Source: Candidatus Dojkabacteria bacterium (GTDB lineage Bacteria; Patescibacteriota; Dojkabacteria; J137). Taken from it: a stretch of DNA of 64,000 nt. Location: positions 18,218-82,217 of the forward strand of contig JBDTVZ010000001.1 in NCBI GenBank assembly GCA_040006935.1, in the 5' to 3' direction. Shown here piece by piece: positions 11,451-63,754 of this stretch. The position numbers and the translations under genes are program-made. The notes below the pieces were generated by a model. It saw only the letters and a program-made list of their open reading frames with translations. It did no database searches and had not been told where the DNA came from. Each line of letters opens with the position of its first letter. Position 1 is the stretch's first letter.

Positions 11451-12208
11451 TGTCCAATCCAAACGATACTACTGCACAACTTTACGACATTATTTCTGCT
11501 CCGGTTAAAGGTCCAGATATAACAGATGAAGAAATCGCGTTAATTTCGAGTTTAGTGCTTCCAGGATCAAGTATCCTAGACATTGGAGCTGGAACTGGAA
11601 GGCATTTAGTTCCTTTAGTTGAACTTGGCTACAAAGTTACGGGAATTGATTCTTCGGAGAAAATGCTTAACGAGCTTCGCACTAAATTACGAATTAAGAA
11701 TGACGAATTACAAATAGAATCCCATGTGATTAATGCAAATATTTTAACTGATAACTCAAAACTGGAAACTTATAACTTGGTGATTCTTATGTGGAATGCT
11801 TTTAACGAAATTGCTCTCACTTTAGAGGGTGCACAACATCTCCTCGGAGTTTTGAGCAGAATCACAGCTTCAGGTGGTAAAGTCCTTATAAATTCTGATG
11901 ATCCTGAGCTGGAAGATATGAAAAGTAAAGACTTTGAGCTTAATTATTCTAAAGATAATATTGATTATAAAATGAAATGGAAAGTAATTAGTTACGATGA
12001 GGAAAGTAATACTTCGACTTCGGAAGAAATCGTTTCTTTTATGGATAATGACAAATTAGTAGAGCATAAAACTCAAATTACACAAAGATGGTGGAGTGAA
12101 GATGAATATAGAAAACTTGCAGAACAAAATGGATTTAAATTTGAAAGAATGAAACTGAAGAGAAATAGTGAGATGTATTTGGTGTTGAATAAAGTGTCAA
12201 GTGCTTAG
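11450..12208 (+). CDS. class I SAM-dependent methyltransferase
   Basis: 252 aa; motif I ILDIGAGTGRH; start overlaps the SDR stop. Confidence 0.8.
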   Translation: MSNPNDTTAQLYDIISAPVKGPDITDEEIALISSLVLPGSSILDIGAGTGRHLVPLVELGYKVTGIDSSEKMLNELRTKLRIKNDELQIESHVINANILTDNSKLETYNLVILMWNAFNEIALTLEGAQHLLGVLSRITASGGKVLINSDDPELEDMKSKDFELNYSKDNIDYKMKWKVISYDEESNTSTSEEIVSFMDNDKLVEHKTQITQRWWSEDEYRKLAEQNGFKFERMKLKRNSEMYLVLNKVSSA

Positions 12209-27463: not shown

Positions 27464-27465
27464 CT

Positions 27466-28485: not shown

Positions 28486-28505
28486 ATCTCTTCTATAGTT
28501 CTAAA

Positions 28506-31500: not shown

Positions 31501-33941
31501 CTCAAATCCTTGAAACAATAATAGGCTTTAAGATCGAAGGTTTAGATCTAGCTAAGAACTTTGTTGTATTTGGAATGATAATAAACTTTGCAAATAACTT
31601 ACGCGAATTAAAGAACAAAAGGTCTAAAGACTCTCAAGAAGAAATAAATATTGCTATAACTGAACTGCAGAATAAAATAAATAGAATTAAATCTGGCGAA
31701 TTAACAGAAGAAGAAATGCAATTTGAAATGTCTAATGAAAATGTATTGAAGATTTTAATGCACATGACCTCCGGAACTTTACCCAAAGAATATCTAGTAT
31801 TTACAATATTGATGTTGATTACTTCTGGTGTTGAAATTGCTGGAGTTAGAAACGTTTTAAAACTTGATCAAATTATAAAAAACCAAAGAGGAGATGATAT
31901 TGGAGTTCCGTATTTAAAGTATAGAGAGGAAATACTTGAAGTAAAAGCCACAGGAAATGTGATGGCACTACAAGAAGTTATTATAAAAAACGTAAGCATG
32001 TTAATCAACTACATGAGAAATTTTCATAATTACGAGGATTACTCCGAAGATTTTTTAGTAATGTGTAAATTATTGAACCTTAAAGAAGGTGAGTTCTCTA
32101 CCAACTGTTTTGGTATAGGGCTAATTTATCAAGCCATACTTGACTTAATGATTGGTGATATTTGTGAGATTAATTATGCAACTCTCCATCACGAATTAGG
32201 TAATGATATTGAAGACTGGTTTAAAAATCTGGGTGAAATAGTTATGGCGGGTCATGCTGTATTCATTATTAAACTTCCACTTATAGATGGAGAGGAAAAT
32301 AAATATATCATTGGAGATCCACTAAGTGTGATTAACAGCTTAGCTCAAAAAAATAAAAGAAAACCTTTAGACAAACATCATAATTGCATGGTTGTAAAGG
32401 AGTCCGAACTTATGCTAGACAATGAGATTAATTCTGTTCTTGAAAATACAAAATTCGTTACTATAGATCCTAATAAAAAAATCCGAATAGTTCAGAAAGA
32501 TAATAAAGAAATACAAATGAAGATAGATCCTAATGATGTTTATCAAGTATATAAAGACAGGAATTCTATTTTAACCTATGCAATGATTAGTTCCTTCAGA
32601 GATTTAAATGGCTACTTAACAACCATAGCGCCAGATGAAGGTGAAGTATTAATGGATATGATTACAGATTCAAAATATAAAGGAGATAGAAACAAAGCAT
32701 TTGAGAAGTATATGCTTTTATATAATAGATATTCAGGATTTGAATATAGATCTACAAACTCTAATCAAGTAATAGCATCGAATATAATATTATTAAATTT
32801 TGCTCTTGAAAATGATTATTATATTGAAGCTTTGTTCCTGGCCAATGTAAATAAAATAAAATTAGCCAAACTATATCCAGACAAAGACGACTACGATGAA
32901 TCTTTAATTTTCGATACGCAAAAAGCATTTATACTTACAAAAATAGCCAATCTCGATGAGACAGAAATCCTAAAATTAATTGAAGATAAAAAATATCTTT
33001 TAAGAAAAGAAGATATTACACTTATCTGGGAAAATGTCTCCTTTATAAATTTAACATTGCGTTTATTTAATGAAACAAAAGAGGATCAAAAAAGAACTCT
33101 AAAATTACTATCTTCTGAGTCACTTTACTATTTGATTTTTGATCCACTAAGATACAATAATATCCAGGAAATGAAAGACTTATGTAAAGAGATATTAAAA
33201 GTTGCTTTGGAAAATGATTATTTACCATATTCAGCTTATATTATAGAAAAACTAGTTAAGTTAAGTCCCGAAGACGAAACTCTGAAATTAGTAGAAGATA
33301 AGATTATAAAATTCATTGCTAAAACCGATAACTATATAATACTTACACAACTAAATCCACATTTAATTTTCTCAAAATTTATAGACAAAATTCATAAAGT
33401 TTTAGAAGTTAGTTTTGAGATACCAACTATCCAATCAATTTTAAACATATTGAATGGAGTGAAGGATGATAAAGTTATTGATGATCAATACGAAAGTCTT
33501 CACAAAGTATTAAGTAGTAATCACACTGCACTTGATAGAGCTGCTTATCGACATAAAGTTGAAGAAGAAAAAAGAATAGTTGCAGCTGTAGAGGCAAACA
33601 CTCATAGAATTGAGGAGATAAATAATCAAGTAAAAACTGAAGTGAGGTCAGGAGGGCAATCCTACCAATCCCTGCATCAAGAAGAAAAACCCCTTGAACT
33701 TGGAGACAACTATATAAAAATAACTGAAGAGGCTGTTTTCGGATCGATTGATCTACTCGTGAGTAAATATGGTGAACTCTCAGGAGACATAATGGCTCTA
33801 TTTCTTCGAGGAGCTGATGAAACAGTAATTCGTCTAGCAGAGAATAATTTGAGGAAGAAAGGAATATTACTTCCATCACCCGAAAATGCAGCTAAAAGGT
33901 TACAAGGACAAAATCTCCCATTGTTACAATCGAATTCTTAA
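28506..33941 (+). CDS. giant protein (1811 aa), no hydrophobic segments recognised
   Basis: Uninterrupted 5.4 kb ORF; its stop overlaps the stop of the convergent VirB4-like gene by 4 nt. Confidence 0.8.
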   Translation: MQYDEIKQTQNNNLTEIQRERELKAAQLRAQNASTILNKKINRSSFSNSAKEVKPFDYLERLECSMTLDRVDSERNGTNINTQIINCDYSTEIDSKGREIIKMTVPHRLDFLALNLNPGSVFIFDRSNYRLLSIEQKDQQKVVNSVEVWPHVEILSIDKILFTFSDLLNKEKIVAFESLENNVMRLKKGPFDGFPNKIYFQKYNLENPIFIEDYDEIKKAYHAPGQGSFIDVDYNMAIKAFNQASNILETEDRTADFQYPEVLRLFSKLKIAFAKDLIPNENPHDTVFELRLRNELNIDGVHIYAGAVMKIDVNDPEFFTIKYPPQNGVQIEFIEINGTKLYAPGEILCRNTSEDLQITSINGGQLENMGSERVIKIIKANNGFIGLVANDEVIKFTKDHKVLTLLSNVDPSVQILISDIMKNRYFLHDIYSDNYLEGAIELVSNHTGSLATIIFEDEQPGNIIIPNYPNIHPSLHGLAIGQFDRLILDKKGEFAIFGVATERYDMHFRGVWYERIERIFINFRTGEVRFRCDSYFEGGKRYGQTKYSENTYIIVDNLGLKQTGDGIFSEVENNVPKGDDYKDHISRTLKIKEIRIGDMRQLNEDRIDITASFDSIVLNNQENPTLHNWIYAQAPFGSIVNFNSKNSIIESIEVPYDTYIKSGGIRASLGSSFKISGIRKVLFEEDSQNFPLDVKELKGEITITLNNKIYRAKDISVNSLGLKLDKFPLITWEVIYNGATELPDELLVENNSVNIPTKNEILYLANRLTVQVNNRKPEDDFDLEQNVNSLIGLTRWLYESANKLGGPFNLAEWVTIYKPLLYYYYNDPEAVILLIMGFIPNSNGNIDPIDYMFLYATYLEIFKQRYPEVESELILLLSSLNPDLKFIYKNEIKDIISNFEILEDENKQHFLDELDSINMDTPSHIPVPVSHSQVEGFKADQFSIEKGFLKFNEEPKAIDLLQRIGNLRELSTSSELDKQIEIIKENGSRIDMNVVGQISQILETIIGFKIEGLDLAKNFVVFGMIINFANNLRELKNKRSKDSQEEINIAITELQNKINRIKSGELTEEEMQFEMSNENVLKILMHMTSGTLPKEYLVFTILMLITSGVEIAGVRNVLKLDQIIKNQRGDDIGVPYLKYREEILEVKATGNVMALQEVIIKNVSMLINYMRNFHNYEDYSEDFLVMCKLLNLKEGEFSTNCFGIGLIYQAILDLMIGDICEINYATLHHELGNDIEDWFKNLGEIVMAGHAVFIIKLPLIDGEENKYIIGDPLSVINSLAQKNKRKPLDKHHNCMVVKESELMLDNEINSVLENTKFVTIDPNKKIRIVQKDNKEIQMKIDPNDVYQVYKDRNSILTYAMISSFRDLNGYLTTIAPDEGEVLMDMITDSKYKGDRNKAFEKYMLLYNRYSGFEYRSTNSNQVIASNIILLNFALENDYYIEALFLANVNKIKLAKLYPDKDDYDESLIFDTQKAFILTKIANLDETEILKLIEDKKYLLRKEDITLIWENVSFINLTLRLFNETKEDQKRTLKLLSSESLYYLIFDPLRYNNIQEMKDLCKEILKVALENDYLPYSAYIIEKLVKLSPEDETLKLVEDKIIKFIAKTDNYIILTQLNPHLIFSKFIDKIHKVLEVSFEIPTIQSILNILNGVKDDKVIDDQYESLHKVLSSNHTALDRAAYRHKVEEEKRIVAAVEANTHRIEEINNQVKTEVRSGGQSYQSLHQEEKPLELGDNYIKITEEAVFGSIDLLVSKYGELSGDIMALFLRGADETVIRLAENNLRKKGILLPSPENAAKRLQGQNLPLLQSNS

Positions 33942-35911
33942 ACTTGCGGTGGAACAGCTGAAACTTCTGTAGTAACAGGTTGTTCAATAGGCTGTGCTTG
34001 AGGAGTTACATTATCTGTTGGTAGAACTGTTCCTGGTTGTTCTAATGGTGGAGCCGAAGAAATATCTAACTGATCTCCTTCTTCATTTTCTACTTTCTGT
34101 TGAAGTAACTCATTAGGGTTTGTAGTTATCAAATTATGCTCATTTTGACTTGCAACAATTTGTATAGCAACATGATTAGCCCCAGCAAAAAATAATCCTT
34201 GTCCAATTCCTGCAGACATTAAAAAAGACTTTTCACCATCTGTAAGATAGAATACTTTCTTTAATTTATCTATCGCAGCTGGTGCTTGCTTCAATAATAT
34301 CTGCATGGATGAGTTATTAATTATTGCTTTACCATAATCTGAAGCTAAGAAGTCATCAACATCTTGTGTAATAGTTGTTAGACCTAATGCATATTTTCTA
34401 GCTCTCTTAGCAATTGAGTATACAAACTTGGCAGCATCTTCGTATTGCATCATAATCCAAGCTTCATCAATTATTAATAATCTTTTCCTCTTATCTCTTT
34501 TAATCTTGGTCCAAATGTAATCAAGCATTACATACATGGCCATTGGTCTTAAATCATCAGCTAAATCACGAATTGAAAATACTGTAAATGTATTGTGAAT
34601 GTTAACCGTGGATTTCCTATCAAACACACCAGATGCGGAACCTTTTAAATATTTTTCTAATCTACGAGCCATTGAATGGGATTCATCTTCCGACATTGCA
34701 TTTAAAATCTTATACAAATCTTCTAACAAAGGAGCTTCGTTTGAATGTGTTGATGGATCGGGTGTGATACCTTTTTCTTTGTACGTTAATATTAAAGCTC
34801 TATCTAAAATTGCTGCTTCCTCTGCAGTTACTGTTCCACCCAACATCATTCTAATTAATCCAGAGAGAGTTAAAATTTTAAATCGGAGTTCATCTTCATC
34901 AGCGTTAAATATCCCAGATAATTCAAAGGGATTCAATTTCTGAGCACCGTCTTGCGAGAATGATATATATTCTCCACCAACTGCATCACATAATCTATCA
35001 AATTCTTTTTCTGGGTCTATAATAATAATGTCAATTCCAAGCATTAAGGACCTCACAGCTTCCAATTTAACTGCATAGGATTTACCAGCTCCGGATGTAG
35101 CCAAAACGACTGAGTTAGCATTAGGAAGTGAAAATCTATCGAAAATAACTAAAGAATTATTATGAAGATTAACCCCATATAAAACTCCTTTATCCATTGT
35201 TAACTCACTACTGACGAATGGGAAAGTTGTAGCAATGGCAGTAGTATCCAAGTTTCTGGTCATATTTATTTTATCAAGACCATATGGAATTGTGCTTTGG
35301 AAACATTCTTCTTGTTGAAGTGTAGCAACTTTAATAATAATTCCAATCGTTGCCATTGTGCTCTCCAGATTCTTTGAAATTTTATCTAACTCTTCCATAG
35401 TATCTGCATGCAATGTTACGTACAAGGCATATTGGAAGAATTTTTCGTTCCCAGCGGCAAGCTGTTCTTGCAAAGTTAATGCATCTTTAAGTTGTACTGC
35501 AACAATAGGATCTCCTTGTCTACCTGCTTCAATTTCAATATTTATTGTTGCCTGAAACTCTGCAATTTTTCTTTTTAAGATTTTTAATATTTCACCAGTT
35601 TCAAAAGGATAATAATAAGTGCTGATGTCTACGGGATATTCAAAGTTAATTAATGGTTCTAACCAACTAGGAGAAACAACACTAGGAAAGCCGATAGCAA
35701 AATATGATCTAAAATACTTATTCCCTATTATTAAATTACTGAAGTTAACCTCAATGGCACTTGGTGCAATAATGTCTTTAACATCAATTAATCCTTGAGC
35801 AAATTTCTGAATAGATTGGTTCTCTCGAGCCAAAGCAGCAGCTTCTTGAGGGTTTATAGGTTTTGTACCTTTTTTAGGTTTTGCGTCTGGTATTAATCCG
35901 AATAAAGCCAT
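33938..35911 (-). CDS. VirB4/TrbE/CagE-like type IV secretion ATPase (C-terminal 657 aa)
   Basis: Walker A LATSGAGKSYAV, Walker B LLIIDEAW; the overall VirB4-family arrangement; a C-terminal ~60 aa Pro/Gln-rich tail. Confidence 0.85.
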   Translation of the reverse strand: MALFGLIPDAKPKKGTKPINPQEAAALARENQSIQKFAQGLIDVKDIIAPSAIEVNFSNLIIGNKYFRSYFAIGFPSVVSPSWLEPLINFEYPVDISTYYYPFETGEILKILKRKIAEFQATINIEIEAGRQGDPIVAVQLKDALTLQEQLAAGNEKFFQYALYVTLHADTMEELDKISKNLESTMATIGIIIKVATLQQEECFQSTIPYGLDKINMTRNLDTTAIATTFPFVSSELTMDKGVLYGVNLHNNSLVIFDRFSLPNANSVVLATSGAGKSYAVKLEAVRSLMLGIDIIIIDPEKEFDRLCDAVGGEYISFSQDGAQKLNPFELSGIFNADEDELRFKILTLSGLIRMMLGGTVTAEEAAILDRALILTYKEKGITPDPSTHSNEAPLLEDLYKILNAMSEDESHSMARRLEKYLKGSASGVFDRKSTVNIHNTFTVFSIRDLADDLRPMAMYVMLDYIWTKIKRDKRKRLLIIDEAWIMMQYEDAAKFVYSIAKRARKYALGLTTITQDVDDFLASDYGKAIINNSSMQILLKQAPAAIDKLKKVFYLTDGEKSFLMSAGIGQGLFFAGANHVAIQIVASQNEHNLITTNPNELLQQKVENEEGDQLDISSAPPLEQPGTVLPTDNVTPQAQPIEQPVTTEVSAVPPQV

Positions 35912-37392: not shown

Positions 37393-37462
37393 GGACCGCC
37401 GAACTATTGCGCGAGAATTGGCGGTATGACCTCACCCTAACCCTCTCCTTGAAAGGAGAGGG
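37393..37462 (-). repeat. GC-rich two-hairpin intergenic repeat, copy A (reverse orientation)
   Basis: GGACCGCC-loop-GGCGGTATGACCTCACCC-TAA-CCCTCTCC-TTGAAA-GGAGAGGG; the same stems recur at 46885-46956 and 62216-62288. Confidence 0.8.
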
Positions 37463-37743
37463 AATTGGTCCCTCTTGTAATGACAAGTGCACCTGAGATT
37501 CATAAGGTACACAGATTTACCCTGTCGAAGGCATGGTCTGCGCCCCTGTTATTCGTATGGGGTCCAGCCACCTGCCTGACTGCGCACACAGGCACGGTGA
37601 CTGGACCTTCATTAAGTGCCAAGTTAAAGAGTGTTGTAACATCATGCAGTAATAAACTGCCACGATCAAAAGATGAGGTGGTAAGGTCAACATAAAACTA
37701 AAGCTAATAAATTCGCTAAGATTTATAGCAGTATAGCAATAAC

Positions 37744-46837: not shown

Positions 46838-46884
46838 GTTTCTCCCCTTCATAAGGGGAGATGGCGAAGCCGAGGGGTTTGGCT

Positions 46885-46956
46885 CCCTCTCCTTTTAAGG
46901 AGAGGGTTGGGGTGAGGTCATACCGCCGCAAAACCACGTACTAGTTAGGGCGGTCC
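46885..46956 (+). repeat. GC-rich two-hairpin intergenic repeat, copy B, preceded by an extra hairpin at 46841-46861
   Basis: CCCTCTCC-TTTTAA-GGAGAGGG-TTG-GGGTGAGGTCATACCGCC-loop-GGGCGGTCC; an upstream TCTCCCCTT-CATAA-GGGGAGA hairpin. Confidence 0.8.
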
Positions 46957-52200: not shown

Positions 52201-53220
52201 ATGGACAAAAATGAACAAAAAAATATCAAATATTTCCAGTTAGCTTCTATAATATTTAGTATTATCTTTTTCATATTAGTTTTTCAAGCAATTTACCCGC
52301 ACTACATATTTGGTGTTTGTGACTATACTCGGTGGTTGACAATTCCGATGGTTCTTTTTGCCATACTAAGTTTCTTAACATTTTTACCTAACTTTATTAT
52401 CCGATTTAAACAAAGATCACAAACTAAATTATTTTTAGTTAATCTAATCTTCATTTTGCTTACAGTTTCTATACTGTTTATTTCAATTTTAAGTAACCTT
52501 TGTGGTGGTTCTACAGGTATAACTGGAGCCACTGGTTTAAACGGGACAATTGGAGTATCAGGGAATATTGGTGGAACGGGTGAACAAGGAAAACCAGGAT
52601 CAACTGGATCAAAAGGGATTTCTGGGCAAACTGGTACCCAGGGTAACTCCGGTGAAGCAGGTGCAGTTGGAGCTGGTGGAACACCTGGATCTGTAGGATC
52701 TACTGGAAGCAATGGGATACCCGGAACAAACGGTTTAGTTGGAGGTTTAGGGTTACAAGGGCCACCAGGTCCACAGGGAGATCCAGGAGCTGCTGGTACT
52801 CCAGGAACAAGTGCTAATATTAACTATGGGTACATTTATAATACTGGTGCCCAATCAGTAGCAATTGATGCTCCTATTCTTTTCAGCTCGTCCGGACCAA
52901 TGGTTGGAGTCACACATACTGCTGGAACATCTACAATTACTATTACTAATGCTGGAGTATATTCAATTAATTTTTCAGTATCAGGGGCAGAAGCTAATCA
53001 ATTTACTGTATATATAAATGGCACACCATCTCCTACAACTACTTATGGCTCAGCAGCTGGTATCCAACAGAATAATGGACAAGCAATTCTTATACTCGGT
53101 GCTGGTGATGTTTTAACTGTTGTAAATCATTCTTCTGCAGCTGCTGTAACTCTTACAGCTCTAGTTGGAGGGACACAATCAACAGTAAGTGCTTCAGTAC
53201 TTATTAGACGATTAGATTAA
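52201..53220 (+). CDS. collagen-like triple-helix repeat protein with a BclA/C1q-like C-terminal domain
   Basis: 339 aa; three N-terminal TM helices, ~100 residues of G-X-Y repeats (GATGLNGTIGVSGNIGGTGEQGKPGSTG...GPPGPQGDPGAAGTPG), then a ~130-aa beta-rich domain (ITITNAGVYSINFSVS...TVYINGTP...AILILGAGDVLTVVN) typical of BclA/TNF-like trimerisation domains. Confidence 0.8.
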   Translation: MDKNEQKNIKYFQLASIIFSIIFFILVFQAIYPHYIFGVCDYTRWLTIPMVLFAILSFLTFLPNFIIRFKQRSQTKLFLVNLIFILLTVSILFISILSNLCGGSTGITGATGLNGTIGVSGNIGGTGEQGKPGSTGSKGISGQTGTQGNSGEAGAVGAGGTPGSVGSTGSNGIPGTNGLVGGLGLQGPPGPQGDPGAAGTPGTSANINYGYIYNTGAQSVAIDAPILFSSSGPMVGVTHTAGTSTITITNAGVYSINFSVSGAEANQFTVYINGTPSPTTTYGSAAGIQQNNGQAILILGAGDVLTVVNHSSAAAVTLTALVGGTQSTVSASVLIRRLD

Positions 53221-54241: not shown

Positions 54242-54592
54242 TTAGTAAGTTAACATTTTATTAATCAATCCAGACAGCATCTTCCCTATTATAACTAATG
54301 AACTATAAATATTGCTATACTCGATTTCGTTTATTTTATCTTCGATCTTTAGAAGCTTTATTATTGCTACACATTCCTGCGTGGAACCACGAGCTATTAT
54401 ATAAAAGTTCTTCTTATCTTTACTACTATATTTACCAGCTCCCTCTGCAATATTTAACAAAATACTTGAAGACGCACGATATAACTGGTCTCTTAGGCTA
54501 TTATGTATCAATCTATTTTTTAGAAAAGGTTGTAGAGAAGTTATTAAGTCTTCAGTTTTCAAATACACAGGAAATTTTTCGAAATCAAACAT
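54242..54592 (-). CDS. four-helix-bundle protein (TIGR02436 / bAvd-like), second copy
   Basis: 116 aa; LNIAEGAGKYSSKDKKNFYIIARGSTQEC family signature. Confidence 0.8.
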   Translation of the reverse strand: MFDFEKFPVYLKTEDLITSLQPFLKNRLIHNSLRDQLYRASSSILLNIAEGAGKYSSKDKKNFYIIARGSTQECVAIIKLLKIEDKINEIEYSNIYSSLVIIGKMLSGLINKMLTY

Positions 54593-54725: not shown

Positions 54726-54969
54726 AGCAGGTAGGGGGAATCGAACCCCCCTCATCAGTTTGCCTGCCCGCCTAAGGTAAAGTCAGGTTGCAATAAAGAA
54801 TGTGAATACAGCGGGTAGAGGGAATCGAACCCTCCTCTTCAGTTTGGAAAACTGACATAATAACCGATATACTATACCCGCTGTATTCACACTAATTATT
54901 TTTAATACCAGTTAAGTTTACTATGGCAGGCGGGGGAAACTGGCATAATAACCGATATACTATACCTGC
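54726..54969 (-). tRNA. tRNA-Gly(CCC)-like gene split in the anticodon loop: 5' exon 54969-54934, 173-nt insert 54933-54761, 3' exon 54760-54726 (minus strand)
   Basis: Minus-strand halves: GCAGGTA-TA-GTAT-ATCGGTTA-TTAT-G-CCAGT-TTCCC | insert | AA-ACTGA-TGAG-GGGGG-TTCGATT-CCCCC-TACCTGC. The acceptor pairs perfectly (GCAGGTA/TACCTGC). The discriminator is U. The T-arm is canonical. The anticodon stem has a C27.A43 mismatch. Confidence 0.5.
54810..54881 (-). tRNA. tRNA-Gly(UCC), complete, inside the insert of the split tRNA
   Basis: Minus strand GCGGGTA-TA-GTAT-ATCGGTTA-TTAT-G-TCAGT-TTTCCAA-ACTGA-AGAG-GAGGG-TTCGATT-CCCTC-TACCCGC-T. The anticodon is UCC and the discriminator is U73, as expected for Gly. 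The D-arm is identical to that of the outer tRNA. Leader TGTGAATACA and trailer TGTATTCACA form a perfect 10-bp extension of the acceptor helix. Confidence 0.8.
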
Positions 54970-55588
54970 ATTAATTACTCCACAATTATAGCAAGTAACT
55001 CAAAATTTTCAAGAATAACAATAATGGCTATGCTACTCATAAACCGACATTTTGAAAAGGCCGTGCCACCTCCTATTCAGTTTTCCGTCAAACTTTAGCG
55101 ACACATCGAATTATCGTTACCAGGTAAGCACTTAGATGTATTCTGATGATTGACAAAAGTATATTTCTGTTATATAATTAAATAGTTAAAAATCAATTAC
55201 AGATCGCGTGTTTACAAGACGGGATGGTCAAGGGAAAGTACGTGAGTCCCAAAACAACCACAAAACTCCCCAACCCTAGTTAATAGTTAAAAATTAATAG
55301 TTAAAAGAAGGAAATATCTTCTTGTTCAATTTCAATAAATGGTTATTAATAGTGCACTTAACTCTTCACTATTAAATCTTAACTATTTATGGGCATTGAA
55401 CCATCTTATTTTCGTAAGAATTTAAGACTCATGCTTAATTCTACTTTATTGTAGAAGAACCTTAAAAACTCAAAAGAAGAAATTCTTTTGGGTTTCGTGA
55501 TTAACAATACACATGCTAACGCTGTGTGTTAATTGCAAAAACCCAATAGAAAGCTTAATAATTCGATTTAACTCTAGTTTACAACTGG

Positions 55589-55706: not shown

Positions 55707-56696
55707 ATGACCGCAACTACAACAAGCCCTGTAACCCGGGCTTCCAATTCGGGTTGGTTCTGGATATATTTGATACTTTTTATGTTCGCTTGTATTGGTT
55801 TAAGCGGTCTCGCGCTACGATACACCAATGGCAACGGAGCAATCAAGAACAGTGCAGCAAGCGTAAGCTTGACAATGCAGCCACTGAACACTAACTACGG
55901 AGCCGGTGGTGTAAATGATTCACCAACGGCAACGCCTTATTGGCAACCTTCGACTATTTCGACGCAGACAGCAGTTCCAAACACATTGATTAACGACTCG
56001 ACATTCGGTTGGGTATATCAAAGTGATGTAACATGTATTCGCAATACATTTGAAGCAATGCATGTTACTCGCATCGTCAACATCGGACAGTCTGTCGGAA
56101 CTGACGGTTCGCCTTCACCAACCCTTGCTTTAATTGGCGTAATCAGCGAAGGCTCTTTTGTGTCTGAATTTGACAACACCAATGGACGGTCATTGACCTT
56201 TCGAGGTGGCGAGGAAGAACAAATCACTCCTACAAGTCCGACACAAATTATCCTCGTAATACTCAATCAAAATGTGGTCAATTTCGCAAATTTCTACTCA
56301 CAACCCTTGCAAGGGGTTGTTGCTGAAGGCGGAGTACCGCTGCTGTCTGTGGGTATAGAAATTAATCAAGGTCAAGGGAATGTTAGCGAAAATCTCTACT
56401 GGGGTAATTCTCTTATTGGTTACGTTAACGGACCTGTAACAATTGTACAGGATATTGGATCAGTATTCACCAACTACACTATGTCGGAGCTGGGCAATCA
56501 CTTGACTTTCAATGACTTTTCTCCTGATAACCTCAGAGGAATCGGTATACCTGTTGAAATGCTTGGAAATGACTGCTGGTCAATCAGCCTAGCTGTCACA
56601 GTCCCAACAAATCAAATACTCAGCTTTGGTGTGGGAACTTTTCAGTATCCACACTATACAGCTATCGCAGACTACCTGATGGTTCACAGCCAGTAA
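55707..56696 (+). CDS. membrane-anchored Ser/Thr/Gly/Asn-rich protein of foreign composition
   Basis: 329 aa; one N-terminal TM helix (WFWIYLILFMFACIGLSGLAL). Codon and amino-acid usage are clearly different from neighbours: GC about 45% against about 30%, and almost no Lys/Glu. No recognised domain. Confidence 0.7.
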   Translation: MTATTTSPVTRASNSGWFWIYLILFMFACIGLSGLALRYTNGNGAIKNSAASVSLTMQPLNTNYGAGGVNDSPTATPYWQPSTISTQTAVPNTLINDSTFGWVYQSDVTCIRNTFEAMHVTRIVNIGQSVGTDGSPSPTLALIGVISEGSFVSEFDNTNGRSLTFRGGEEEQITPTSPTQIILVILNQNVVNFANFYSQPLQGVVAEGGVPLLSVGIEINQGQGNVSENLYWGNSLIGYVNGPVTIVQDIGSVFTNYTMSELGNHLTFNDFSPDNLRGIGIPVEMLGNDCWSISLAVTVPTNQILSFGVGTFQYPHYTAIADYLMVHSQ

Positions 56697-56841: not shown

Positions 56842-58764
56842 ATGTTTAGATACAGAATACTAACAACTCTCATACAAATCGCAGTACTTTCTCTAATTCT
56901 TTTTTTAGGGTTTACTAATCCAAATTATTCTACAAATTACTTTATTATTGGCTACATTTGGCTAATCCTATTCACTTTCCCAAGCTTACTTTCTAAAATT
57001 ATTTTTAATAAGTCTTATTTTAGTTTAACTTCCGCACTTTGCTTTCTTTATTATCCAATTACTTATCTATTTGTATTTTTTGTAGCAAAGGTCTTTGCAA
57101 TTGATATAAATATATTAATACTTACATTGAGTATATTAGTAGTTCTACTTTGGAACCTTGCATTAATTAGTATTACTTTTACTCAAAAGGCTCATGAAAC
57201 CAGGCAAATAATCACGTTTGCACTTGGAGTACTAATTTTGAGTGTAACGTTATTTGGATTTTTAACAATTGCAGGTAGGTCTGTAAATTCAGTAGTAGCA
57301 AACGATTACCTTGTACACAAAACAGTTGTCTTCCCCATGGCTAATAGCGCAGAAACACTTTGCTTTCTACCAAGCCAGTGTTCAAATTTATTTCTATTAG
57401 ATTCCTATACAAGCTTTTACCATACTTTCATAATAATTCCTCTTGGAGGATTTAAATTTGATCCTATAATCTCAAGTTATATCTTAGACATTGTTTTTTC
57501 ATCTTTTATTATAATTTTAAGCTACATAACAGCCAGAAAGTTTGGCCTAAAAGTCAATTATGCAATTTTTGCAGGATTAATTTCACTAGTGGTTTTCGAT
57601 TCTGGAGCATTTACCGCCACAATATTCATTCCTCAAACTATGGCCTTTATGCTTACATTGTTTATTATTAACTCTCAAAAGCTAAATTTAAAATCACTCC
57701 TAATATCACTTATAGTGCTAATTCCAATACATTTTATAATGGGAATTTATTGTTTTGGAATTATGCTGCTTTACTATTTAATTGTAGAAAAAGAAATTTT
57801 AGAAAAATTTGAAATTAGAAAAAGATTACTAATAATACTGTCACTTTCAGCTACTTTATTAGTTTTATTGCTCAGTATTTCAGGCTTTGGAATAGAAAAG
57901 ATCTTTCAAGCAGAAGAAATTAAAAAACTTGGGTTTGCTACAAACTACTACTTTCCTGACAATTTAAAATTTCTATTCGAAATGGTCGGTTTAGGGAGTT
58001 TTATTTTTATAGCATGTCTTATTTATTACTATATCAAGGGAAAAGAAGATAAATATAATAATTTCCTAATAACAATAATTACTTGTGAACTGGTAGCATT
58101 TTTACTTGCACCAATATATGCAAATAAGTTTTTAATTGGCATTGGTGTATTTTTAGCAATTTTTATAATCAAAATTATTGCTAACCTAAAACAAAATGAA
58201 ATTAATAAATTATTTTATTGTTTTTATACCCTAATTTTAATCGCAATAAGTTTTGTTACACAATATAGATTCTTTCTTCTATTTTATACTCAGAGTAATG
58301 GTGAAACTTCGGCAATAGTTCAGAAAGACTTACCTATGGTTAACTTTGTAAAAAATAGCAAATTAAATTGCTTTTATGTTTCAGACCCACAAACACAACT
58401 CACAATCAGTGCTTTAGGCGATAAAATAACAGCAAGTGGGCACTATATGAGCTTAGACTCTCGAAGAGTATTATTTGAATTAATAAAATCTCCAAACGAT
58501 TTAAGGCTAAGTAAATTATATTCATTAGAAGAGTTCAAAGGAGTACGAACAGATATCTGCTTTGTTTACTCTGCAAGGTTAAAGGAATACGTAGCAAATG
58601 ATAACCAAAACTGGACGTTTAATATCTACAACTATATTGTAGATTATCAAAGAGAGATTGACCCAACAGACAATATTGAGAGGTATATGGTAAGTAAAAA
58701 TATCCACAGTGTCTACAATGACAAATACTATTCAATATACTTACTTCCTAAAAGTAGTAACTAA
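56842..58764 (+). CDS. polytopic membrane protein, probably a GT-C-type (ArnT/PMT-like) glycosyltransferase or polymerase
   Basis: 640 aa; at least 12 TM helices then a soluble C-terminal domain; next to GT4, GT2 (polyprenyl-phosphate sugar synthase-like) and a flippase. Confidence 0.55.
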   Translation: MFRYRILTTLIQIAVLSLILFLGFTNPNYSTNYFIIGYIWLILFTFPSLLSKIIFNKSYFSLTSALCFLYYPITYLFVFFVAKVFAIDINILILTLSILVVLLWNLALISITFTQKAHETRQIITFALGVLILSVTLFGFLTIAGRSVNSVVANDYLVHKTVVFPMANSAETLCFLPSQCSNLFLLDSYTSFYHTFIIIPLGGFKFDPIISSYILDIVFSSFIIILSYITARKFGLKVNYAIFAGLISLVVFDSGAFTATIFIPQTMAFMLTLFIINSQKLNLKSLLISLIVLIPIHFIMGIYCFGIMLLYYLIVEKEILEKFEIRKRLLIILSLSATLLVLLLSISGFGIEKIFQAEEIKKLGFATNYYFPDNLKFLFEMVGLGSFIFIACLIYYYIKGKEDKYNNFLITIITCELVAFLLAPIYANKFLIGIGVFLAIFIIKIIANLKQNEINKLFYCFYTLILIAISFVTQYRFFLLFYTQSNGETSAIVQKDLPMVNFVKNSKLNCFYVSDPQTQLTISALGDKITASGHYMSLDSRRVLFELIKSPNDLRLSKLYSLEEFKGVRTDICFVYSARLKEYVANDNQNWTFNIYNYIVDYQREIDPTDNIERYMVSKNIHSVYNDKYYSIYLLPKSSN

Positions 58765-59880
58765 CGTATAGTATTGCTCAAAGAGAACTTTATCTGAAAG
58801 CTTTTCAAAAGCCTTAGTCGAAACTTCTTGGTTTAATTTAAAGTTAGTTTTCTCACAAAGTTTAATTGCCTCAGAAACTTTATTAACTAAATCAACAATA
58901 TTTTTTCTTTCAAATACCAAATTATCAATTCCCAAAGTTTTAGCCATTTCAATATTACTTTCAGCATTAGAAAACACTCCTACATTGCCTAAAGCACTAG
59001 CTTCTTGATTAGCAAGAGAAAACCCCTCACTTAGTGAAGAATTGATGAAAATAGAGCTTGTAGAGAGCAAACTAAATACTTCCTCTTGCGGTAACAACCG
59101 ATTCTGAACTGATACATTGGAAGGGTAACTATAATCACCTGGTTTTATTTCAAAATCCCCTTTACCTATTAACTGAAACTTCCAATTTGGATATTTTGTA
59201 CTTAAAATTTCATATGCTTTTGCTACAGTTTCAGGATCCTTCACGATGGATATTCTAGATATGAAAGATATTGTTTTCTCTTTCTTTGTAATATCGTATT
59301 TACTGACTTTATCGCTATTAAAACCTGTATTTATCACAATAACTCTATCTTTAATCTTTGGATGAAGGTTAATTAATATGTTCTTAGTATATTCCGAAAT
59401 TGCAACGACAGCTTTTGCTTTAAATACTATGCTTCCAAATACAAATTTATCTAAAAAAGCCATCAATTTATTTGCACCTCCAGATTTGAAGATATTTGGC
59501 TGAAAACCACTATCAATATAGATGTAATTTATTCTCATTAATACACAAAGTACAAAAGCAATATAACTTGTAGTGAAATGCCTACCATTAATAATTACAA
59601 CTTTATTCTTAGTTTTAAGAAAAAACTTTAAAACAGTAAAAAAGAACTTTAAAGTTACAAATGGATATAACCCTCCAAAAAGCATCTTAGCCCTAATTGA
59701 CATTTTTAAAATCCCATTCTCTTGCCTGGTGTAATTTTCACTTGAACAAAAAATAGCAGTAGTTTTAATATGTGGCTTAGATACTAAAAAACTTAGTAAA
59801 TTATATGCAAAGGTTTCAACACCACCTACATGAGGAAGAAAAAGGTGGGAAATTGAGATTACATTTATTTCTTGTTCCAT
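58741..59880 (-). CDS. glycosyltransferase family 4 (GT-B)
   Basis: 379 aa; the C-terminal EGFSLANQEASALGNVGVFS motif (E.7E-like). Confidence 0.8.
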   Translation of the reverse strand: MEQEINVISISHLFLPHVGGVETFAYNLLSFLVSKPHIKTTAIFCSSENYTRQENGILKMSIRAKMLFGGLYPFVTLKFFFTVLKFFLKTKNKVVIINGRHFTTSYIAFVLCVLMRINYIYIDSGFQPNIFKSGGANKLMAFLDKFVFGSIVFKAKAVVAISEYTKNILINLHPKIKDRVIVINTGFNSDKVSKYDITKKEKTISFISRISIVKDPETVAKAYEILSTKYPNWKFQLIGKGDFEIKPGDYSYPSNVSVQNRLLPQEEVFSLLSTSSIFINSSLSEGFSLANQEASALGNVGVFSNAESNIEMAKTLGIDNLVFERKNIVDLVNKVSEAIKLCEKTNFKLNQEVSTKAFEKLSDKVLFEQYYTLVTTFRK

Positions 59881-59913
59881 AACTTTGTAAAGTAATACAA
59901 TGATATTGTATAC

Positions 59914-60612
59914 TTATGCCTTCAAAGATGCGAATCTATTAGAGATTAACCAGCCTAAGTGACTTAAACCAGTTTTTAGATATTGTTGTTTAGAGTTACC
60001 TTTAGATCTTCTGTTTTGTCTAATTGAATACTCACCCATTTTCAAATCTTTATTTTTTGCAACGTTAATTTTTATTTGAGGGCTTAAGTTCCAATCTCCT
60101 TGAGTTAAATTAAGTTGAGATTTAACCTCTTTTCTAATAAACCACATACCGGAGAGTATGTCGTTAAAGTACTTTCCATAAAGTATAAAGGCAGTGATAT
60201 TAAGCACATAAACTCCTAACTTTTGTATAGCACTAATTTTAGAACCTTTAGCTGGAGGAAGTCTATGGCAATACATAAAGTCGTACTTAGAATCTATAAA
60301 TTTATCCAACATTACGGTTAAATTATCTAACGGGTGTTCTGCATCTCCGTCTATAGAAAGAATTATATCTCCCGTAGCTTTTTCTATACCAGTCATATGG
60401 GCAAAACCATAACCTATTCCATTTAACTCTCTGTCATCTTTGAATGCTTTAAATCCAAGCGATAAGGCTTTCTCATAGGTATCATCTGTAGATCTATTGC
60501 TTACCACAATAATCTCATCTACAAAACTAGGTATAGAAGATTTAATCGTTTCCAGATTATTAGATTCATTCCTACAAGGAATATAGATTGTTACTTTGTT
60601 ATTTCTATACAT
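59914..60612 (-). CDS. glycosyltransferase family 2, polyprenyl-phosphate sugar synthase (DPM1/ArnC-like)
   Basis: 232 aa; IYIPCRNE...VVSNRSTDDT...DGDAEHP (DXD region). Confidence 0.85.
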   Translation of the reverse strand: MYRNNKVTIYIPCRNESNNLETIKSSIPSFVDEIIVVSNRSTDDTYEKALSLGFKAFKDDRELNGIGYGFAHMTGIEKATGDIILSIDGDAEHPLDNLTVMLDKFIDSKYDFMYCHRLPPAKGSKISAIQKLGVYVLNITAFILYGKYFNDILSGMWFIRKEVKSQLNLTQGDWNLSPQIKINVAKNKDLKMGEYSIRQNRRSKGNSKQQYLKTGLSHLGWLISNRFASLKA

Positions 60613-60718
60613 ATGATGCTATTAGTATATACTAATTATATCATAAATAGAGCAAAAACTCAATTTTGAGGAGACCAACAATGCTTTACTGTAGATCCAA
60701 TCGAAGAGATTACTAGAA

Positions 60719-60997
60719 TTATTGTACGCTGCTGACTTCCAGTCCCTTATCTTCTAAACACAATTGATAAAGGTAAGTAGAAGGTTCCGTTCTAGTCACT
60801 CCATTGGCAGTATTAGTTACTGTTGCACTCTTAAAACAGCCGTCAATTGCATCGTTTTTTGTCTTTTGTACTTCAAGAGAGTACGTATCTTGAGCTATTT
60901 TTAGGTAATCTGCTGACCTTATGAATGCAACATAAGCAAGGATACCTATAGCTATAATGAATGCGATTCCTAGTAGAAAATTTATAAATACCTTCAT
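60719..60997 (-). CDS. small membrane-anchored protein
   Basis: 92 aa; N-terminal TM; two Cys. Confidence 0.5.
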   Translation of the reverse strand: MKVFINFLLGIAFIIAIGILAYVAFIRSADYLKIAQDTYSLEVQKTKNDAIDGCFKSATVTNTANGVTRTEPSTYLYQLCLEDKGLEVSSVQ

Positions 60998-61109
60998 AGT
61001 GATAACTTAATAAATATATGATGATTATATATTAAGGATGAATTTATCTCAAATAAAAAGGCGACAATTTATATTGCCGCCTTTTAAATACTTTAGAAGT
61101 TCTGTAAAC

Positions 61110-61388
61110 TTACTTTTTAAGTTTGTTCTTAATATATTTACCGTTTAGTATAAGTACTAAGCCCGCATTGAATGCTGCTCCAATAGCTATTACATCAAAT
61201 GCTCCTATCTGACCGGGATTATCATCTTGAAAAATAATACCAGTATTTGCGCATGTAGTAATACCATATGCTCCAACTGTACAAGTTTGACCACCAGCTG
61301 CTGAAACAGTATTTATATTACTAAATACAAATGTAAATAGGAACATTGATATTGCTACTATTATTAATTTTATTATATTTTTTGTCAT
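61110..61388 (-). CDS. small secreted Cys-containing protein with a C-terminal hydrophobic segment and basic tail (possible sortase substrate or pilin-like)
   Basis: 92 aa; signal peptide ending ...NTVSAAG; C-terminus AIGAAFNAGLVLILNGKYIKNKLKK resembles a cell-wall sorting signal but has no LPXTG. Confidence 0.5.
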   Translation of the reverse strand: MTKNIIKLIIVAISMFLFTFVFSNINTVSAAGGQTCTVGAYGITTCANTGIIFQDDNPGQIGAFDVIAIGAAFNAGLVLILNGKYIKNKLKK

Positions 61389-61456
61389 ATTATTTTTATA
61401 TAAAACTATTGTTTTAATATATAAGCATTATACACTCAATATACCAATTTGTCAAG

Positions 61457-62134
61457 TTATCTAATCAAAGTGGCATAGACAATTATCCTTTCTGGTGAAT
61501 AATAATCTATACATGTGTACATTATTAAGTCTGCTAATTTTGAGACATGATTAGAAGTCTCAATTGCATTAACCTGATACCTATATTGTTTACCATTCCA
61601 ATTTATTGTGACTATTTCTCCACCTTTTAATTGATCGAATTCCGTGAATAAGTTGGCATTTCTCCAATCCCAAGATATGTTATTTTCACCCCATCTATGA
61701 GCTGCGAGAACAATAGGTAGCTCATTATTGTCTGGAGTACCATAATTCGGATCTCTCCAAACACCTGCAGCTAAAGCAGCCTCTTGGTTTGTAGATTCGT
61801 AGATTGTTGTATTTATTTTGATTCCGCTTACTTGTACAGTAGCACCTGTAGTAGTTACCGTATTCCCTACGACAAACTGTAATGGTTTTACCTTAGTTTC
61901 ATTAACAACTGTAGCTGTAAATGGATCTTTAAAGGTATATTTTGGAGTAGGTTTTACATCTGATTGTGCAAAAATAGCTGTTGATAGGATTTTATCTTCT
62001 TTTTGAGCCTCAAAAACATTAGTTTCAGCTTTAGGTGCAAAATTGATAAAAGACAAGAAAGCTATCGGGATTATCATCAGAATAATTCCGATCAAAATAT
62101 TTATATTGGCAAAGGTTTTTAGCACTTTTTTCAT
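61457..62134 (-). CDS. sortase-family transpeptidase
   Basis: 225 aa; N-terminal TM; catalytic His in LAAHR, Cys in LIMYTCID (TLxTC-like), and a C-terminal Arg (RIIVYATLIR). Confidence 0.75.
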   Translation of the reverse strand: MKKVLKTFANINILIGIILMIIPIAFLSFINFAPKAETNVFEAQKEDKILSTAIFAQSDVKPTPKYTFKDPFTATVVNETKVKPLQFVVGNTVTTTGATVQVSGIKINTTIYESTNQEAALAAGVWRDPNYGTPDNNELPIVLAAHRWGENNISWDWRNANLFTEFDQLKGGEIVTINWNGKQYRYQVNAIETSNHVSKLADLIMYTCIDYYSPERIIVYATLIR

Positions 62135-62215
62135 ATACCAATTATATCACAAAACGAAGTGTTTTACGAGGCATCAGGATTGTGGATCATGCTAAGAGTG
62201 ATGTGAGAAGAAGTT

Positions 62216-62288
62216 CCCTCTCCTTTCAAGGAGAGGGCTAGGGTGAGGTCATACCGCCCCAAAACCATGACATACATCTGGGCGGTCC
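62216..62288 (+). repeat. GC-rich two-hairpin intergenic repeat, copy C
   Basis: CCCTCTCC-TTTCAA-GGAGAGGG-CTA-GGGTGAGGTCATACCGCC-loop-GGGCGGTCC; hairpin 2 is identical to copy A. Confidence 0.8.
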
Positions 62289-62313
62289 ATATTTAGATTT
62301 GCTTATTGATTGT

Positions 62314-63543
62314 TTACCGCCTTAACTCTAAATCTCTCAAACTAAATCTTAAGTTTAGTATATTCAAGAATAAGAAAAGTATATTAGCTAGAAGTAACAA
62401 AATCGGAAGTAATGAAATCCCAAATATATTTATTAAAAGTACTGAAAGCACTAGGAACGAAATACTTTGAATTAAAGCAGCATTTCTATATCTATTTTCG
62501 AAACCTAAAGCCATTAAAGCCGATAATATAGGTGAAGTAACAATGTAGATCAAAACACCCCCAAGAATAGGGTAAAAGTACTGTAAGCCATTATCTGCAA
62601 TTTCCTGGTTATAGACAATTCTTAGGGCTAACCCAGCTAGAGGAATACTTAAAAGGAAGATTGCGACACAGAATGCAGATAATATTTTTATATACCTAAA
62701 CATCGACTCAACAAGCTCTTTCATTTTACCCTGCGCAACTAAGTGACTAAATTCCGGTAAGAGTTTCGTTTGTAATATTACGGATAGCACTATTGGTACA
62801 GTTGCCAAAGTACTTACAGATTTATAAATTCCGTTTTCATAATTACCAGCATAGTTGGTCACAAGTATTGAATCCCATTGTCCCATAATCACATAGGCCA
62901 TTATAGAAATTAATACATTTGCTGCAAAAATAACAAAGCGCTTATCGTATTTAGCTTTTGAAAAGTCTATTAGCTTATCTTTAAATAACTTTTGAAGAGG
63001 AATTATTGAGAATAAGAGCCAAGCAAAGGCTCTACTTAATAGGAAAGCATTTATTACATCTGTGATTTTCAAGAAGTATAGAACAAAAGTAAGTCCAATA
63101 AATATTAATGAAGAAATTGTAAAGTAGAGACTGGTTCGAAAATCGTCTCTAAGTCCATTAAAAATGAGAATAAATACGTTGCTCGCAGAAAATATTAGTA
63201 TTAAAGCCATTTGCCAACCATAACCGAAGGAGATTCTATAACCAGTAGCCCAATCAAGTAGTAGAAACAAAACTCCACCAATTAAAACTAGCACAATCTC
63301 TGCATAAACCGAGAACGAAATTCTCTCAACTCTGTCTGTATTTTGAGCAACAAACTTTTGAGCAGCTTCTGGTAAGCCAAAATCCGTTAAAACTCCAACA
63401 ATAGTAATCAAAGCAATAAAGTAATTTAATAATCCTATCTCGTCTGTACGAGCAAATTTACTCAATACAAAAAGAATAATTACGGGACTTGTGCTTGATA
63501 GTACTCGAGAGATTCCGGGAAGAACAGATTTTATAAATTTCAT
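62314..63543 (-). CDS. MOP-superfamily polysaccharide flippase (Wzx-like)
   Basis: 409 aa; ~12 TM helices; length and topology typical of polysaccharide biosynthesis transporters. Confidence 0.7.
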   Translation of the reverse strand: MKFIKSVLPGISRVLSSTSPVIILFVLSKFARTDEIGLLNYFIALITIVGVLTDFGLPEAAQKFVAQNTDRVERISFSVYAEIVLVLIGGVLFLLLDWATGYRISFGYGWQMALILIFSASNVFILIFNGLRDDFRTSLYFTISSLIFIGLTFVLYFLKITDVINAFLLSRAFAWLLFSIIPLQKLFKDKLIDFSKAKYDKRFVIFAANVLISIMAYVIMGQWDSILVTNYAGNYENGIYKSVSTLATVPIVLSVILQTKLLPEFSHLVAQGKMKELVESMFRYIKILSAFCVAIFLLSIPLAGLALRIVYNQEIADNGLQYFYPILGGVLIYIVTSPILSALMALGFENRYRNAALIQSISFLVLSVLLINIFGISLLPILLLLANILFLFLNILNLRFSLRDLELRR

Positions 63544-63672: not shown

Positions 63673-63754
63673 GGACCGCACAAAGAAATATCCTGCTTTC
63701 GGTGCGGTAGAAACCCCTCCGGCTACACCACCTCCCCTTTGATCAAAGGGGAGG
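63673..63754 (-). repeat. diverged member of the two-hairpin repeat family, copy D
   Basis: GGACCGCAC-loop-GTGCGGTA...CCTCCCCTTT-GATC-AAAGGGGAGG: the same architecture with different stems. Confidence 0.4.

Follow-up and report, generated by a model that had tools for sequence, protein, structure and literature searches.

A conserved envelope gene cluster of Candidatus Dojkabacteria in which a glycosyltransferase module lies beside a sortase and a small sortase-substrate-like protein

The 64,000-nucleotide stretch of Candidatus Dojkabacteria bacterium analysed herein (contig JBDTVZ010000001.1, positions 18,218 to 82,217; hereafter the window) is AT-rich, with a GC content of about 32%, and carries at 56842-63543 a cluster of seven genes in which enzymes suited to lipid-linked, extracytoplasmic glycosylation stand beside a sortase and a small secreted protein, s1. 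The sortase gene, s1 and the gene of the GT-C-type glycosyltransferase remain neighbours in related genomes, and we favour, tentatively, the explanation that the locus is a conserved envelope cluster of the Candidate Phyla Radiation (CPR), composed of a glycosylation module, a sortase and a dedicated, miniaturised sortase substrate. CPR/Patescibacteria are mostly uncultured episymbionts whose surface chemistry is essentially unknown. Sortase is among the protein families enriched in them (PMC6744442), and a literature search found no paper describing sortase substrates in CPR bacteria.

Genes of the cluster and the enzymes they encode

The open reading frames (ORFs) of all seven genes are present at exactly the positions that a preliminary description of this DNA had assigned to them. 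The features of the cluster are as follows.

56842-58764, plus strand: M640, 640 aa, a novel, oligosaccharyltransferase-like protein of the GT-C fold with about 15 helices and a C-terminal extracytoplasmic globular domain (residues ~483-640)
58741-59880, minus strand: GT4 glycosyltransferase of the GT-B fold (PF00534, 7.2e-15; PF13692; PF13439, 4e-7)
59914-60612, minus strand: GT2, probably a polyprenyl-phosphate sugar synthase (AglJ/DPM1/ArnC-like) and the cognate partner of the GT-C protein (PF00535, 1.3e-15)
60719-60997, minus strand: s2, 92 aa, with an N-terminal membrane anchor, an ectodomain of about 60 aa and two conserved Cys
61045-61085, minus strand: intrinsic-terminator-like hairpin with U-run directly 3' of s1, assessed by its minimum free energy (MFE)
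61110-61388, minus strand: s1, 92 aa, mini sortase-substrate-like protein with sorting-signal architecture and the motif C-A-N-T-G
61427-61455, minus strand: sigma-70-type promoter of s1 (12/12, TTGACA-17-TATAAT)
61457-62134, minus strand: membrane-anchored sortase (PF04203, 5.3e-12)
62214-62267, no strand assigned: GC-rich palindromic intergenic repeat of 53 nt between the flippase and sortase genes, terminator-like on the minus strand
62314-63543, minus strand: Wzx-like (MOP/Polysacc_synt) flippase candidate (PF01943, 5.8e-15)

M640 had no match in Pfam, NCBIfam or the PDB sequences; neither the STT3 Pfam domain nor the WWDYG motif was found in it, and neither YfhO (PF09586) nor any other Pfam family matched M640 or 10 of its remote relatives. 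An AlphaFold model built from 13 homologues (pLDDT 84.4, pTM 0.85) displays a GT-C fold with a polytopic membrane core and an extracytoplasmic domain. The nearest structures are STT3/PglB/AglB, DPY19 and ArnT, with AftA/AftD also among the best matches. The C-terminal globular domain of the model is of the oligosaccharyltransferase (OST) type; in structure comparison it is AglB-like and resembles the acceptor-peptide-binding domain of AglB/PglB/STT3. The model thus identifies M640 as a GT-C enzyme of OST-like architecture without WWDYG. The preliminary description had called the 640-aa protein GT-C-like, and the fold of this confident model agrees with it; M640 is not a member of an unrelated transporter family, which had been named as the opposing outcome.

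Invariant in the M640 family are Asp155 and His159, the pair Cys174/Cys180, and the stretches FIPQT, HFIxG and S-D-P-x-T-Q, and these residues reappear in remote GT-C relatives, where an equally invariant Asp157 corresponds to Asp155. The loop with Asp155 also holds the Cys pair and is placed outside by the positive-inside rule, judged by eye. GT-C enzymes have a catalytic Asp/Glu in their first external loop, a role for which Asp155 is a candidate. S-D-P-x-T-Q opens the C-terminal domain. When 1.84 billion representative proteins were searched with the family profile, 233 clusters were assigned to this GT-C family at E <= 1e-3, and 44 reached E <= 1e-30; it is a small family that lacks annotation.

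The GT4, GT2, Wzx-like flippase and sortase assignments of the preliminary description all lie above the Pfam thresholds. GT2 reached 58.2 bits with PF00535 (cut-off 23.3), and its top NCBIfam matches were AglJ (1.7e-20), a Dol-P-hexose transferase (5e-13) and PpgS (1.5e-9), all far below the equivalog cut-offs (73.6 versus 325 bits for AglJ). Given its conserved adjacency to the GT-C gene, GT2 is probably a polyprenyl-phosphate sugar synthase. In six related loci (L044, L052-54, L062 and L063; L numbers denote such loci throughout), a single protein of 647-648 aa adjoining M640 homologues unites GT4 and GT2 by fusion. The flippase scored 55.9 bits with PF01943 against a gathering score of 28.2, and 13.8 with the NCBIfam WZX_like model against a cut-off of 300; its homologues adjoin the sortase or s1 in L002-L011, L014 and L064.

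The sortase matched PF04203 with 46.0 bits (cut-off 26.6) over model positions 2-124 of 125, and consists of a transmembrane segment (residues 7-32), a low-confidence linker of about 60 residues and a catalytic domain (residues ~94-225). A His/Cys/Arg triad had been noted before; it is confirmed by the alignment of His146, Cys208 and Arg216 with the catalytic residues of streptococcal SrtA, and the His and Cys are invariant in 14 homologues. Homologues P0019-P0022 have Lys at the Arg216 position and are otherwise well conserved, Arg147 and Arg158 being invariant; in this clade the catalytic Arg may be replaceable or relocated.

Class assignment of the sortase was attempted in three ways, by NCBIfam models, profile search of PDB sequences and fold search, and none of them separated the classes. 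With the class-specific NCBIfam models, the scores were 43.8 against 160 for class C, 24.6 against 165 for class D and 27.7 against 140 for SrtD, and no match was obtained to the class A, B, E or F models. The best PDB-sequence matches of the sortase profile were a class C Ebp sortase (2e-7) and SrtA (1e-4). The AlphaFold2 model (pLDDT 79) forms a sortase barrel, with which Foldseek retrieved class A, C, D and E structures at similar E-values (1e-8 to 4e-7). We regard the enzyme as a diverged CPR sortase whose motif diverges correspondingly.

The small protein s1, its sorting signal and its full-size relatives

The s1 protein begins with a signal peptide (residues 1-30, ending VSA|AGG), after which comes a predicted mature peptide of 19 residues (31-49; AGGQTCTVGAYGITTCANT) that includes Cys36 and Cys46 and the loop CTVGAYGITTC, of the form C-x4-YG-x3-C. 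The motif C-A-N-T-G (residues 46-50, nt 61239-61253) is followed by a spacer, a hydrophobic, presumably membrane-spanning segment (residues ~63-83) and the tail KYIKNKLKK. The protein thus has the layout of a sorting signal, with a signal peptide at the N-terminus and, beyond the motif, a hydrophobic segment and a positively charged C-terminal tail, and it contains no LPXTG and did not match TIGR01167 or PF00746. In a scan of the window, s1 was the only ORF with a hydrophobic and basic C-terminus that corresponds to an annotated gene, the other matches being short or overlapping ORFs. No other protein with an s1-type C-terminal signal was found in the window, and only small peptides carry one in about 0.7 Mb of related Dojkabacteria/Patescibacteria loci.

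Close homologues of s1 numbered only 2 among 5.8 billion proteins. The neighbourhoods of related sortases, by comparison, provided a family of 48 distinct small proteins, from whose alignment the motif statistics were taken. The family consensus, [P/C]-[I/V/A]-x-T-[G/S], is non-canonical: the Thr is present in 45 of the 48 sequences and is followed by G/S (48/48) and then F/L/I (46/48), while upstream of it P/C occupies position -3 in 42 and I/V/A position -2 in 41. After the motif come acidic residues, the membrane segment and a basic tail. The mature segment comprises 10-34 residues (median 18), its N-terminal residues are not conserved as a Gly nucleophile, and a Tyr located 7-9 residues before the motif Thr, Tyr41 in the window, is universal. 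The conjecture that the small secreted protein carries a non-canonical recognition motif has accordingly held, with C-A-N-T-G standing in alignment columns that are nearly invariant. Two other candidates were rejected: at NPGQIG even the closest homologue differs, with NDNQLS, and the membrane-proximal LQTG[N] (L008, L010) or LQTA[N] (L009) has no conserved counterpart in the window or L001-L004.

Which part of s1 is under selection was assessed by codon comparison with its closest relative, L001. The 19 mature codons differ by 10 synonymous and 3 non-synonymous changes, the signal peptide by 6 and 13, and the spacer by 5 and 8. These counts mark the mature peptide as the most constrained part of s1, under purifying selection, and hence as the selected product of the gene. 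A perfect promoter (12/12, TTGACA-17-TATAAT) lies within the 68-bp gap after the sortase gene and recurs upstream of s1 in L001. On the 3' side, the terminator is contained in a 78-nt stretch (61035-61112) with an MFE of -20.6 kcal/mol (z = -4.9 versus shuffles). A dedicated promoter and an own terminator are what one typically finds at a structural gene that is abundantly expressed.

The neighbouring s2 gene, preceded by a promoter-like 11/12 match at 61052-61024, is conserved beside s1 or the flippase gene in L001-L007 and L064. Its products (84-94 aa) share two invariant Cys in AIDGCF...Y.LC..DKG and have no family match in Pfam or NCBIfam. It was detected only in loci with a Cys-containing s1 peptide, though not in all of those; s2 might help to form the disulfide of the s1 YG loop.

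Larger proteins related to s1 came to light in the wider GT-C family, for which a metagenome scan with remote GT-C relatives yielded 51 loci. In several of these, from other CPR lineages, a sortase gene lies directly beside a gene for a 203-240-aa protein, 2-4 kb from the glycosyltransferase module. These proteins have a signal peptide, an N-terminal C-T-x-x-Y-G-G-G-x-T-C loop, DUF11 (PF01345, TIGR01451) and the sorting signals LPKTG/LPPTG/TPATG/TPSTG; the anchor of the L070 protein passes TIGR01167. The DUF11 proteins and window-type s1 have in common a C-x(3-5)-Y-G-x(2-4)-C loop that comes straight after the signal peptide, and 19 of the 28 occurrences of this pattern among 3,295 ORFs belong to DUF11 proteins or s1-type peptides. 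Since its mature loop matches the N-terminal loop of these proteins, s1 looks, on sequence grounds, like a miniaturised CPR sortase-dependent DUF11 protein that keeps only the YG loop and the anchor. Neither the window nor the ~0.7 Mb of related Dojkabacteria/Patescibacteria loci yielded a large substrate, of the DUF11 type or otherwise.

Could s1 be a sortase-associated membrane factor rather than a substrate? In actinobacteria, SafA, a small transmembrane protein of 52 aa with an exoplasmic FPW motif, is encoded directly downstream of srtA and shields the sortase from signal peptidase (PMC9282373). The placement of the gene for a small membrane protein directly after the sortase gene reproduces the SafA arrangement (PMC9282373), and the window-type motif stands unusually far from the membrane segment. 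However, no FPW motif is present in s1 or s2, the strongest constraint falls on the extracellular mature peptide and not on the membrane segment, and the full-size relatives carry LPKTG/LPPTG, with an L070 anchor that TIGR01167 accepts. Because s1 lacks FPW and has the full architecture of a sorting signal, from the cleavable signal peptide through the near-invariant x-T-G to the C-terminal membrane segment and basic tail, we consider a SafA-like role improbable.

The preliminary description had considered that the locus might serve a surface filament or an S-layer-like component. In a corresponding explanation, the sortase would assemble a fibre or pilus, and s1 would be a minor component (a base or terminator subunit) or a peptide polymerised head to tail. 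The best sequence-level matches of the sortase are indeed class C pilus sortases; moreover, a conserved Lys, in (I/L)xINK, comes immediately behind the loop of the DUF11 relatives, one of which weakly matched TIGR04226, a fimbrial domain that forms isopeptides (1.7e-4, short of the cut-off). Against this, the sortase is structurally equidistant from classes A, C, D and E, the mature s1 peptides have no conserved N-terminal Gly to act as nucleophile, and the large substrate expected of a fibre is missing from the window and the related loci. With a predicted length of about 19 residues and no Lys, mature s1 is too small for a pilin or an S-layer protein, and because of the missing Lys a pilus-like fibre has little probability here.

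Gene linkage and the surroundings of the cluster

The s1 gene directly follows the sortase gene in all close relatives, and an s1-type small ORF is found near the sortase in about 40 of 55 related genome loci. Contigs with sortase relatives nearly always encode a same-strand protein of 72-105 aa, directly after the sortase or one gene on. Wherever the flanks are long enough, an M640-family gene has a sortase and s1 within a few kb (the window, L002/7, L003, L004-6, L008-11, L014, L044, L052-54, L062 and L064). Order and orientation vary among these loci, and the sortase, s1 and GT-C genes remain clustered across at least six gene orders. In relatives, a gene for a secreted protein of about 200 aa lies upstream of M640; the window has no such gene.

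A second, larger Dojkabacteria clade (~30 loci; hereafter clade 2) has the order sortase, VanY, s1, and then a GT2 gene that starts about 10 nt downstream of s1 or overlaps it. Further along lie another GT2 gene and, in place of GT-C, the gene of a polytopic protein of 1.1-1.2 kaa, here called BIG, for which no Pfam, NCBIfam or PDB relative was found. L062 bridges the two clades. The clade-2 VanY, a D-Ala-D-Ala carboxypeptidase, adjoins the sortase and stands between sortase and s1 in most loci. VanY and BIG were observed in L015-L054, for instance in L025 (8439-9263 and 12231-15911).

Among the 51 loci of the wider family, the GT-C gene abuts that of a close homologue of the window GT2 (phmmer 1e-49 to 1e-62) in about 45; an overlap of 4 nt between the two is common, and GT4 often comes next. 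Given this adjacency, GT-C and GT2, with or without GT4, are regarded as the conserved core.

The surroundings of the cluster contain repeats and possible insertions. The GC-rich intergenic repeat (45-53 nt) has three copies in the window, in both orientations, built as CCCTCTCC-loop-GGAGAGGG followed by GGGTGAGGTCATACCGCC. Two copies had been attributed to the cluster; one lies in it, at 62214-62267, but the other two are at 37420-37464 and 46884-46936. A GC-rich palindrome of similar design and different sequence occurs at 63731-63754, 188 nt past the end of the cluster. The repeats and the palindrome are REP/MITE-like (repetitive extragenic palindrome/miniature inverted-repeat transposable element), and the copy at 62214 may terminate the flippase transcript.

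On the other side, a tRNA-Gly(TCC) gene (54809-54882, minus strand) is flanked by partial tRNA duplicates (54726-54762 and 54934-54978), and beyond it lies the gene of a 329-aa secreted protein (55707-56696) with its own terminator and 42-45% GC, versus ~30% around. This gene was rejected as a cluster member, having no homologue in any related locus and a deviant GC content. Together with the tRNA-Gly region it gives the impression of an island that entered at the tRNA, immediately before the GT-C gene. In L010, the stretch 10413-11757 between the flippase and GT4-GT-C genes holds a DUF559-like ORF and a high-GC lipoprotein-like ORF, and the DUF559-like ORF ends in ...SKEGEG, resembling a translation of the GC-rich repeat of the window. 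There may be a recurrent insertion hot spot beside the cluster.

Genes of 23S rRNA intervening sequence proteins (four-helix bundle, PF05635) recur near the sortase clusters of different Dojkabacteria, at 54242-54592 (minus strand) in the window, at 3021-3395 and 5812-6156 in L002, and at 950-1306 and 6958-7323 in L003. At a distance of 3.6 kb from the cluster, 52201-53220 (plus strand) encodes a BclA-like, possibly glycosylated surface-fibre protein, with collagen triple-helix repeats (PF01391, 1e-13) and a C-terminal domain of BclA (PF18573, 5.5e-11). In the region 20906-35911, two giant ORFs of 2185 and 1811 aa without a Pfam match adjoin a TraG/VirB4-like P-loop ATPase gene (33938-35911, minus strand), and the region may serve conjugation or a type-IV-secretion-like process; in L003, TraG/TraC-like genes occur at about 10 kb from the sortase.

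Proposed pathway and comparison with known systems

The conservation of the cluster suggests a cell wall decorated with a sortase-anchored peptide or glycopeptide. In the pathway that we propose, polyprenyl phosphate would receive a sugar from the AglJ/DPM1-like GT2 on the cytoplasmic side of the membrane, and perhaps another from GT4, giving a polyprenyl-phosphate-linked mono- or disaccharide, which in this lineage would be flipped by the Wzx-like protein. Outside the membrane, M640 would transfer the glycan, most likely to the disulfide-closed YG loop of an s1 that its C-terminal anchor still keeps in the membrane. Candidate sites are Tyr41, which is universal in the family, and the Thr residues next to it. 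Finally, the sortase would cut s1 between Thr49 and Gly50 in C-A-N-T-G and join the (glyco)peptide of about 19 residues to lipid II/peptidoglycan. The YG loop is put forward as the acceptor because the linkage is persistent, s1 and GT2 are closely spaced in clade 2, and the loop is the only extracellular part that has been kept.

The preliminary description had proposed a system for protein glycosylation and sorting. Its glycosylation and sorting genes do stay coupled, through at least six gene orders and also in other CPR lineages with full-size LPxTG proteins, but the glycosylation of s1 and its anchoring to the wall are deduced from this gene linkage, and several findings weigh against the pathway as drawn. 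No conserved N-x-S/T sequon is present in the mature peptides of the 48-member alignment. For this reason, N-glycosylation of s1 in an OST-type reaction was rejected as unlikely, and any choice of acceptor residue is guesswork. The distance from T-G to the membrane segment is 14-17 residues in window-type s1, versus 5 in the clade-2 peptides and 2-5 in the DUF11 relatives. In the sortase, Arg216 is replaced by Lys in 4 of the 14 homologues. Many long loci of the wider GT-C family have no sortase within 8 kb, so that the GT-C module does not strictly need a neighbouring sortase. A flippase homologue was detected in none of the 51 loci, and a place of the Wzx-like protein in the widely conserved core is not supported. 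The clade-2 clusters carry BIG instead, whose kinship with M640 was rejected (hhalign probability 3%, no family or PDB match).

The missing sequon and the long loci without a nearby sortase also speak for a rival explanation, in which two independent envelope functions share an island. GT2, GT4, flippase and GT-C would then decorate a non-protein acceptor such as peptidoglycan, a teichoic-acid-like polymer or a glycolipid, in the manner of ArnT, YfhO/CsbB or Aft/Emb, and the sortase would anchor unmodified s1. ArnT and AftA/AftD are among the best structural matches of M640, and VanY, a peptidoglycan-editing enzyme, occurs in the clade-2 and L062 clusters. However, GT-C stays linked to the sortase and s1 through the many rearrangements described above, and the linkage holds even in lineages whose substrate is a full-size DUF11 protein. 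The s1 and GT2 genes of clade 2 nearly touch or overlap, and the C-terminal domain of M640 resembles one that binds acceptor peptides. We therefore regard independent functions as rather unlikely, though deserving more weight than a SafA-like or pilus-like role of s1.

Within the favoured explanation of a glycosylation module with a sortase and its dedicated substrate, a more specific idea can be formulated, which we put forward as speculative and on balance doubtful. Dojkabacteria would have reduced a sortase-dependent DUF11 protein to a dedicated carrier peptide of 10-34 residues that retains nothing but the N-terminal Tyr-Gly loop and a non-canonical sorting signal and is expressed from a consensus promoter; the OST-like GT-C would glycosylate the loop, possibly at the invariant Tyr, and the sortase would couple the glycopeptide to peptidoglycan. 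If true, this would be a new bacterial way of attaching glycans to the wall, through a protein-based 'linkage unit', and s1 would be the smallest natural sortase substrate known. The locus supplies a sortase-substrate pair with a defined non-canonical motif, which may serve protein ligation, a new GT-C family of 233 clusters, covered by no Pfam model, with its cognate GT2 and GT4, and testable predictions on peptidoglycan-linked (glyco)peptides.

Extracytoplasmic glycosylation of sortase substrates by GT2 and GT-C enzymes is of a kind already known. New are the GT-C family, the sortase with its motif, the extreme degree to which the substrate has been miniaturised, and the occurrence in a CPR host; in the library searched, no paper was found on such a GT-C family, sortase and motif or mini-substrate, or on such a system in CPR bacteria. 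The closest parallels are Pgf (the GT2 PgfS, the GT-C proteins PgfM1/PgfM2, and PgfE) and GtrB/PgtC2 of S. pyogenes and S. pneumoniae, in which likewise a GT2 makes a polyprenyl-phosphate sugar and a GT-C transfers it to proteins outside the membrane (PMC12041528; PMC5856776). In S. mutans, PgfS and PgfM1 glycosylate cell-wall-anchored adhesins that are encoded in the same pgf cluster, and GtrB/PgtC2 has a similar role in other streptococci (PMC12041528). In contrast to Pgf, M640 is not of the YfhO type, has no Pfam match and is closest in fold to STT3/PglB/AglB, DPY19 and ArnT. The window cluster further includes GT4, a Wzx-like flippase and the sortase itself, and its putative acceptor is a Tyr-Gly-loop peptide of 10-34 residues, whereas in Pgf it is the Ser/Thr-rich region of a large adhesin.

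Archaeal Agl N-glycosylation combines AglJ, acting on dolichyl phosphate, further glycosyltransferases and AglB with archaeosortase processing of the S-layer glycoprotein. Compared with it, the window system lacks WWDYG and a conserved N-x-S/T sequon, its GT2 stays far below the AglJ cut-off, and its processing enzyme is a bacterial sortase, not an archaeosortase/exosortase, in a CPR bacterium. In the GspA/LcpA/SrtA pathway of Actinomyces oris, too, a sortase substrate receives its glycan while tethered to the membrane, and the housekeeping sortase anchors it afterwards (PMC6381275). There, however, glycosylation is carried out by an LCP phosphotransferase and not by a GT-C, and GspA is full-size with a canonical sorting signal.

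With canonical sorting signals, s1 shares a motif ending in T-G, the hydrophobic segment and the basic tail. LPXTG is the motif of class A sortases and LAXTG that of class E; the x-A-x-T-G of the window resembles the latter, but in s1 peptides position -3 is Cys or Pro instead of Leu, and position -2 is Ala, Ile or Val instead of Pro. To our knowledge, the mature part of the s1 family is shorter by far than that of any known sortase substrate.

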